From NCBI RefSeq assembly GCF_003334765.1, contig NZ_QOWT01000053.1: 16,776 nucleotides of DNA. The stretch is one strand, 5' to 3'. The stretch's first letter is position 1. Every line of letters starts with the position of its first letter. Below the pieces are notes generated by a model. It did not search any database. It was not told the origin of the DNA and was given only the letters and a program-made list of their open reading frames with translations. The position numbers and the translations under genes were made by a program. Shown in pieces: positions 16,176-16,776 of the stretch. Source of the DNA: Escherichia coli (GTDB lineage Bacteria; Pseudomonadota; Gammaproteobacteria; Enterobacterales; Enterobacteriaceae).

Positions 16176-16519
16176 ATTGCCACTCTTCTTGACCAAATAA
16201 CCGCGAACAGGGTGATCACTGTCAACTTATTACGCGGTGAGAATTTACAAATTCTTAACGTAAGTCGCAGAAAAAGCCCTTTACTTAGCTTAAAAAAGGC
16301 TAAACTATTTCCTGACTGTACTAACGGTTTAATTGTTAAAAAATGCTACATATCCTTCTGTTTACTTAGGATAATTTTATAAAAAATAAATCTCGACAAT
16401 TGGATTCACCACGTTTATTAGTTGTATGATGCAACTAGTTGGATTATTAAAATAATGTGACGAAAGCTAGCATTTAGATACGATGATTTCATCAAACTGT
16501 TAACGTGCTACAATTGAAC

Positions 16520-16533
16520 TTGATATATGTCAA
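16520..16533. promoter_or_regulatory. FNR/CRP-family-like palindrome TTGAT-ATAT-GTCAA in the arcA upstream region
   Basis: Positions 16520-16533 read ttgatatatgtcaa; FNR consensus is TTGAT-N4-ATCAA (9/10 match). arcA, which would start just beyond the right edge on the + strand, is known to be FNR-regulated. Confidence 0.4.
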
Positions 16534-16776
16534 CGAAGCGTAGTTTTATTGGGTGTCCGGCCCCTCTTAGCCTGTTATGTTGCTGTTAAAATGGTTAGGA
16601 TGACAGCCGTTTTTGACACTGTCGGGTCCTGAGGGAAAGTACCCACGACCAAGCTAATGATGTTGTTGACGTTGATGGAAAGTGCATCAAGAACGCAATT
16701 GTAGATTCAATTGGTCAACGCAACAGTTATGTGAAAACATGGGGTTGCGGAGGTTTTTTGAATGAGACGAACATTT

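Follow-up and report, generated by a model that had tools for sequence, protein, structure and literature searches.

The palindrome at positions 16520–16533 of the window, by which we mean the whole 16,776-nucleotide stretch of Escherichia coli DNA analyzed here, is the FNR box in the control region upstream of arcA, where it probably acts by activating the distal arcA promoter. We hold this explanation, taken as a whole, with considerable confidence. The box is an already documented FNR site, and the only unusual feature in the window's strain is an IS30 element lying between the box and arcA. FNR and ArcA are the two global regulators of the enteric aerobic–anaerobic switch, and the box wires arcA under FNR. 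Three published data sets meet on the same 14 bases, namely the promoter work of 1994 (as cited second-hand), the lasT/yjtD ChIP-seq peak of 2013 and the Reg-Seq footprint of 2020.

In reverse complement, the window corresponds to the thrA–yjtD–yjjY–arcA region of E. coli, and its 3' part spans the K-12 chromosome numbering origin, likewise in reverse complement. Positions 15465–16700 align with K-12 MG1655 free of gaps and with 17 substitutions, and K-12 coordinates were obtained by subtracting the window position from 4657117. The sequence, the position weight matrix (PWM) score, the conservation and the IS30 junction are directly supported by the present analysis, and FNR occupancy and the reporter footprints come from published K-12 data. 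The features discussed below are collected in Table 1.

Table 1. Features of the window around the FNR box, in window coordinates
Feature	Position	Strand	Remarks
thrA	12667–15171	−	
thr leader	15155–15274		Rfam
yjtD (lasT)	15489–16175	−	tRNA/rRNA methyltransferase gene; ORF and annotation; divergent neighbor
ytjE	16346–16399	−	small ORF, 17 codons, TTG start, intact; K-12 4640718–4640771; between box and yjtD
Extended −10-like TGcTACAAT	16506–16514	+	5 nt upstream of box; read from the sequence, function putative
FNR box TTGAT-ATAT-GTCAA	16520–16533	.	K-12 4640584–4640597; dyad center 16526.5
Distal FNR-dependent arcA promoter	16572–16609	+	weak −35 CTGTTA 16572–16577; −10 TAGGAT 16596–16601
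Direct repeat TGTTA-N6-TGTTA	16573–16588	+	11-bp spacing, ArcA-P-box-like; overlaps −35 and spacer
yjjY remnant	16575–16699	−	codons ~6–46 and stop; 5' end truncated by IS30; K-12 4640402–4640542
Distal arcA transcription start site (TSS)	~16609 (K-12 4640508)	+	Reg-Seq, which cites Compan and Touati 1994
IS30 left end	16698–16776	+	AT duplication 16698–16699; IRL from 16700; transposase ATG 16763

The FNR box and its occupancy in K-12

The palindrome TTGATATATGTCAA occupies window positions 16520–16533 and agrees with TTGAT-N4-ATCAA at nine of the ten specified positions. When the box ttgatatatgtcaa is set against the consensus TTGATNNNNATCAA, the sole deviation is GTCAA in place of ATCAA; the match and its location are exactly as an earlier, sequence-only reading of this DNA had given them. 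By itself, this consensus match is at chance level. The box is the only site in the whole window with at most one mismatch. The expected number of such sites in 16.8 kb is 0.56, and 85 of 200 shuffles contained one or more.

Unlike consensus matching alone, a PWM sets the FNR box above chance. We built a symmetric matrix from 61 FNR sites that Table S6 of Myers 2013 places under a ChIP-seq peak, with both the arcA-side box and the thrL site kept out of the training set. The box scores 16.93 bits, which is the top score of the window and lies above the bound-site median of 15.44, with 14 of the 61 bound sites scoring higher. Hits at or above the score of the box are expected about 0.017 times per simulated window and about 5e-4 times in the 525-nt intergenic stretch. 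A weight-matrix scan was one of the checks that the sequence-only reading had proposed, and it came out in favor of the site.

Both half-sites of the box carry TTGA, which is the FNR type. The CRP core TGTGA-N6-TCACA, placed on the dyad of the box, is matched at 6 of 10 positions, and T and A stand where a CRP site has its discriminating G and C; CRP-site identity was rejected on these two grounds. The idea of a chance match, or of a site for CRP instead of FNR, draws on the chance-level consensus agreement in a 16.8-kb window and on the fact that CRP and FNR sites are related. It is nevertheless effectively refuted, and we give it next to no weight: the PWM score is well above chance, the core and half-sites are not those of CRP, the box is conserved, and there are a published FNR ChIP peak and a mass-spectrometry identification, both described below.

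A weak FNR/CRP-like palindrome, GTGATCACTGTCAA, at 16212–16225 precedes the start codon of yjtD by about 40 nt; at 10.09 bits, it scores below all the ChIP-bound sites.

The 14-mer and its flanks are identical to K-12 at the orthologous position, 4640584–4640597, and the distance to the distal arcA promoter is the same as for the K-12 arcA FNR site. The same 14-mer, TTGACATATATCAA on the K-12 plus strand, was reported at U00096.2 position 4638607, with a PatSer score of 14.83 and a ln p of −13.41 (Myers 2013); the offset of 1977 between U00096.2 and version 3 converts 4638607 to 4640584. An FNR ChIP-seq and ChIP-chip peak covers the box, with its summit at 4638594–4638600, i.e. 14–20 nt from the dyad, and sits in an IHF-enriched region (Myers 2013). 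The comparison with FNR ChIP-seq that had been suggested from the sequence therefore finds a published K-12 peak on the box. The box is occupied by FNR in vivo under anaerobic conditions, as published for the identical sequence in K-12, which is another strain than that of the window.

The peak is labeled lasT/yjtD, with no FNR-dependent change of yjtD expression in Table S9, and is listed under Category 3–5, and arcA expression is FNR-independent in glucose minimal medium (Myers 2013). The same study reports a sigma70 ChIP-seq peak, 3.3-fold stronger in anaerobic growth and centered near window position 16490, about 36 nt to the yjtD side of the box (Myers 2013). This center lies off the arcA TSS, and the peak fits fully neither with a divergent promoter nor with an upstream plus-strand promoter, the two possibilities that we take up in the next section.

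Functional evidence comes from Reg-Seq, in which 160 bp about the arcA TSS at K-12 4640508 (window 16609) were mutagenized (Ireland 2020). This start is given for the FNR-activated arcA promoter with reference to Compan and Touati (1994), from whom it is taken second-hand, and the Reg-Seq notes call it ‘one of many’ (Ireland 2020). At low oxygen, activator-type information peaks were found at −89 to −86 and −80 to −76 of the arcA promoter (Ireland 2020). On the window they fall at 16520–16523 (TTGA) and 16529–16533 (GTCAA), the two half-sites of the box. Mutation of either half-site lowers expression of the arcA promoter reporter at low oxygen, and footprint peaks of the RNA polymerase type lie at −37 to −34 and −14 to −7 (Ireland 2020). 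FNR was identified at the arcA promoter through growth condition, motif comparison and mass spectrometry, and the energy matrix prefers TTGA...TCAA, so that a G-to-A change at 16529 is predicted to improve binding (Ireland 2020). A small activator-type signal was also present at −100 to −98, with no repressor-type signature on the box (Ireland 2020). Control and induction of arcA by Fnr is reported in later literature citing Compan and Touati (1994), and EcoCyc carries the arcA FNR site as a ‘low-evidence’ site.

Taken with the glucose minimal medium result, these K-12 data qualify the earlier proposal that the box serves anaerobic activation of arcA. FNR-dependent arcA expression is seen in the low-oxygen Reg-Seq reporter and is absent in glucose minimal medium (Myers 2013), so the activation stands as an effect that depends on conditions.

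These same data allow another reading, in which the box is occupied and conserved but has no regulatory effect in most conditions and, in the window's strain, is silent for arcA through IS30. The Category 3–5 listing and the arcA statement of Myers 2013 lean toward it, as does the presence of IS30 between box and arcA. Mutation of the box, however, lowers low-oxygen reporter expression in Reg-Seq, FNR-dependent induction is reported in literature that cites Compan and Touati (1994), and the box is almost totally invariant in E. coli and keeps its helical phasing out to Vibrio. We consider a silent box to be quite improbable.

The distal arcA promoter and its neighbors

The center of the box lies at −82.5 from the distal arcA TSS. 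Its distance to the ATG of arcA, which is downstream, is 284.5 bp both in Citrobacter and in E. coli free of the IS. The sequence-only reading had placed the palindrome where the arcA promoters are expected. The box is indeed in the arcA upstream control region; arcA itself and its proximal promoters lie outside the window. Consensus scans for promoters and terminators over the intergenic region, the IS-free locus and IS30 returned neither a plus-strand promoter nor an intrinsic terminator, and weak activator-dependent promoters fall below the threshold of the tool.

A position of −82.5 is unusual. The FNR site lies near −41.5 in 19 of the 23 FNR-activated promoters with a known TSS, and natural FNR-activated promoters are overwhelmingly of class II at −41.5, unlike the box. 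A class II geometry toward arcA was rejected, there being no −10 element at 16556–16561 and no Reg-Seq signal at −54 to −48. The likeness of the box to class I activation of the FNR/CRP type lies in its dyad at −82.5, and in Vibrio the distance is 10–11 bp shorter with the same helical face. In synthetic promoters, class I positions are said to lie at about −61.5, −71.5, −82.5 and −92.5, reportedly from the work of Wing, Williams and Busby in 1995.

The mechanism that we propose is as follows. In the absence of oxygen, the [4Fe-4S] FNR dimer binds the box and, from −82.5, most likely assists RNA polymerase in initiating at about 16609, where the −35 element of the promoter is poor. Activation would be of class I, through a presumed contact with the alpha C-terminal domain, and its outcome would be a modest, condition-dependent rise in anaerobic arcA transcription. 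The unusual position at −82.5 may explain why the effect is weak and dependent on the medium.

The −35 element of the distal promoter is overlaid by two copies of TGTTA, starting at 16573 and 16584. They conform to the ArcA-P box definition used here, i.e. at least two TGTTA-like repeats with an 11-bp center-to-center distance (Park 2013), and the repeat looks like a candidate ArcA-P site. Through it, ArcA-P may feed back on its own promoter. The repeat was expected to coincide with the called ArcA ChIP peak, and this proved not to be so: the ArcA ChIP-seq peak of the intergenic region has been assigned to a box at about 16219–16261, some 290 bp from the TGTTA repeat (Park 2013). In a delta-arcA strain, the signal of the yjjY region is down 2.6-fold, which is consistent with positive autoregulation of arcA.

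The ArcA-P box upstream of yjtD (16219–16261, a 43-nt footprint; Park 2013) differs between the window and K-12 by one substitution, at 16240.

Five nucleotides upstream of the FNR box stands the extended −10-like element TGcTACAAT, whose predicted start, at about 16521, falls inside the box. This arrangement could make FNR a switch that, in the absence of oxygen, represses the upstream plus-strand promoter and leaves transcription to the downstream one, with little change in net arcA output. Such a switch would account for binding without a net expression change in Myers 2013, it agrees with the description of the Reg-Seq TSS as ‘one of many’, and in Citrobacter, Photorhabdus and Vibrio TGcTACAAT is conserved on the upstream side of the box, 5–7 nt from it. 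On the other hand, no TSS evidence was found for the upstream promoter, Reg-Seq shows only the small activator-type signal at −100 to −98 and no repressor signature on the box, and the nearby sigma70 signal goes up, not down, anaerobically. We regard the switch as unlikely.

The box might also work mainly in the divergent direction, with FNR at −41.5 in a class II arrangement activating a minus-strand promoter that starts at about 16485 and serves ytjE and perhaps yjtD; such a function can coexist with a role at arcA. The FNR peak was assigned to lasT/yjtD (Myers 2013), the anaerobic sigma70 peak (3.3-fold) near 16490 is the place where a class II minus-strand promoter would lie, and the start of ytjE is 127 nt from the FNR dyad, which makes ytjE a possible divergent target. 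The sole −10 candidate at the right spacing, however, is TTTGAT, in which position 2 is not the crucial A, and yjtD shows no FNR-dependent change (Myers 2013, Table S9). The conserved block beside the box is the plus-strand extended −10, and the conserved repeat, −10 element and helical phasing all lie on the arcA side. Photorhabdus and Vibrio, moreover, retain the box with no yjtD nearby. A mainly divergent function is, in our judgment, decidedly unlikely, and we keep activation of the distal arcA promoter as the preferred explanation.

The remaining neighbor is yjjY. The palindrome had been said to overlap the yjjY-like frame on the other strand, which is incorrect: the yjjY stop codon is at 16575–16577, and the box lies 42 nt beyond the ORF. 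The remnant translates as CVLDALSINV...TILTAT*, and the ORF is whole in IS-free strains. The Keio yjjY deletion was excluded from a conjugation screen on account of its overlap with the arcA promoter, which shows that this stretch is treated as relevant to arcA. A scan with Rfam found no RNA family in the yjtD–arcA region.

Conservation of the box and its phasing

Within E. coli, 5423 of 5426 complete genomes have a 40-nt block centered on the box that is 100% identical. In the 131 nt around it, 899 genomes show two to six differences (the 95–99% identity band).

For the comparison across genera, an exact look-up of the ArcA protein returned E. coli-type loci only, and an ArcA scan of genome contigs yielded at least six useful gamma-proteobacterial loci. 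Among the matches listed, Citrobacter, Photorhabdus and Vibrio have a box with at most one mismatch that precedes the ATG of arcA by 264.5–284.5 bp. In Photorhabdus the box reads TTGATGTACGTCAA and is 274.5 bp upstream of the ATG, and in Vibrio a perfect box, TTGATATAAATCAA, is 264.5 bp upstream. Across genera, again among the matches listed, the half-sites are retained and the spacer bases vary. The arcA upstream regions of Shewanella and Pseudoalteromonas, among the matches listed, have no box with at most one mismatch. A Haemophilus box at a similar distance was set aside as evidence, no ArcA-type repeat following it and its gene context being ambiguous.

The elements downstream of the box are held in register with it. 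In E. coli, Citrobacter and Photorhabdus, the TGTTA copies lie at +46.5 and +57.5 from the dyad and the −10 element, TAnnAT, at +68.5 to +69.5. In Vibrio, the corresponding values are +36.5 and +47.5 for the copies and +58.5 for the −10, so the distance from box to repeat is exactly 10 bp shorter, which is one helical turn, and the spacing from repeat to −10 is constant. The helical face of the box is thereby retained in Vibrio, and a preserved face fits class I activation. On the upstream side, TGcTACAAT is identical in Citrobacter and Photorhabdus and becomes TGtTACATT in Vibrio, at 5–7 nt from the box.

Neither Photorhabdus nor Vibrio has yjtD within 1.5 kb upstream of arcA, from which it follows that the box is conserved together with arcA and not with yjtD. 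For two Yersinia and four Vibrionaceae, an earlier study had independently predicted that Fnr and ArcA sites are conserved ahead of arcA (Ravcheev 2007). The near-invariance in E. coli, together with the helical phasing out to Vibrio, argues for selection on function. The module of box, repeat and promoter is conserved with this phasing out to Vibrio. Our analysis as a whole brings nothing fundamentally new.

IS30 in the arcA leader

The last 77 bases of the window (16700–16776) are the left end of IS30, and the window stops within the element. The window diverges from K-12 from 16701 on, and IS30 transposase is annotated on the megablast matches to the window end. In the leader of the FNR-dependent transcript, 91 nt come before the insertion, which has removed the first five yjjY codons. 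K-12 MG1655, by comparison, has no IS30 here, whereas the leader in the window is broken by the element after these 91 nt.

Among 5426 complete E. coli genomes, 11 share this junction and one more carries the element in the opposite orientation (12/5426 together). In strain 55989 and eight other genomes with this junction, a complete 1221-bp IS30 with the 2-bp AT duplication is followed by arcA 112 bp on. Judging from the 11 genomes, arcA presumably follows IS30 in the window's strain as well, which would place the box about 1.5 kb from it.

IS30 has inserted at the same nucleotide on at least seven flank haplotypes, with as many as 39 substitutions between them over 1222 nt. Among the strains with IS30, three derived from K-12 have flanks identical to those of MG1655, which itself lacks the IS, and the flank of the window is identical to that of strain 300709, likewise without the IS. 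The diversity of haplotypes and the identical IS-free flanks mark these as independent insertions at one dinucleotide, in natural isolates as well as in laboratory lines of K-12. The target, TCAAGAACGCA[AT]TACGTACTTTA, is nearly palindromic, with 8 of 11 pairs symmetric, and IS30 is known for hot-spot preference and a 2-bp staggered attack. The insertions resemble IS30 hot-spot insertions in their 2-bp AT duplication, the near-palindromic target, their occurrence in both orientations and the TTGACA directed outward in IRR. In the literature, we found no report of an IS30 insertion or hot spot upstream of arcA, and what we see in the arcA leader looks like an undescribed IS30 hot spot.

The IRR of IS30 bears an outward TTGACA that is able to form fusion promoters, and IS30 in mhpC of BW25113 has been reported to drive downstream genes strongly. 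The best −10 candidate flanking IS30 toward arcA is only TACTTT, at a spacing of 19 bp. A simple scan of IS30 found no intrinsic terminator, so read-through into arcA is possible. The link from FNR to ArcA is probably weakened or lost in the window's strain through IS30.

One might go further and propose that recurrent IS30 insertion repeatedly rewires the FNR-to-ArcA cascade and is kept by selection, not by target preference alone, a proposal to which we attach little probability. If it were true, IS30 would separate arcA from the distal promoters, the FNR-dependent one included, and an IS-derived or hybrid promoter might take their place. For strain biology, the point of note is that arcA expression may be altered in the 12 of 5426 complete genomes with IS30 at this nucleotide.

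Elsewhere in the window, Rfam families are represented by the Thr leader and tpke11 only. The latter, an sRNA, is matched with 69.6 bits at 1298–1375 on the minus strand, in the dnaK–dnaJ region according to the K-12 mapping. A second FNR-type site, GTGACCTAAGTCAA, with 14.29 bits, lies over the thrL promoter at 15341–15354, which corresponds to K-12 111–124 and falls under an FNR ChIP-seq peak (Myers 2013).
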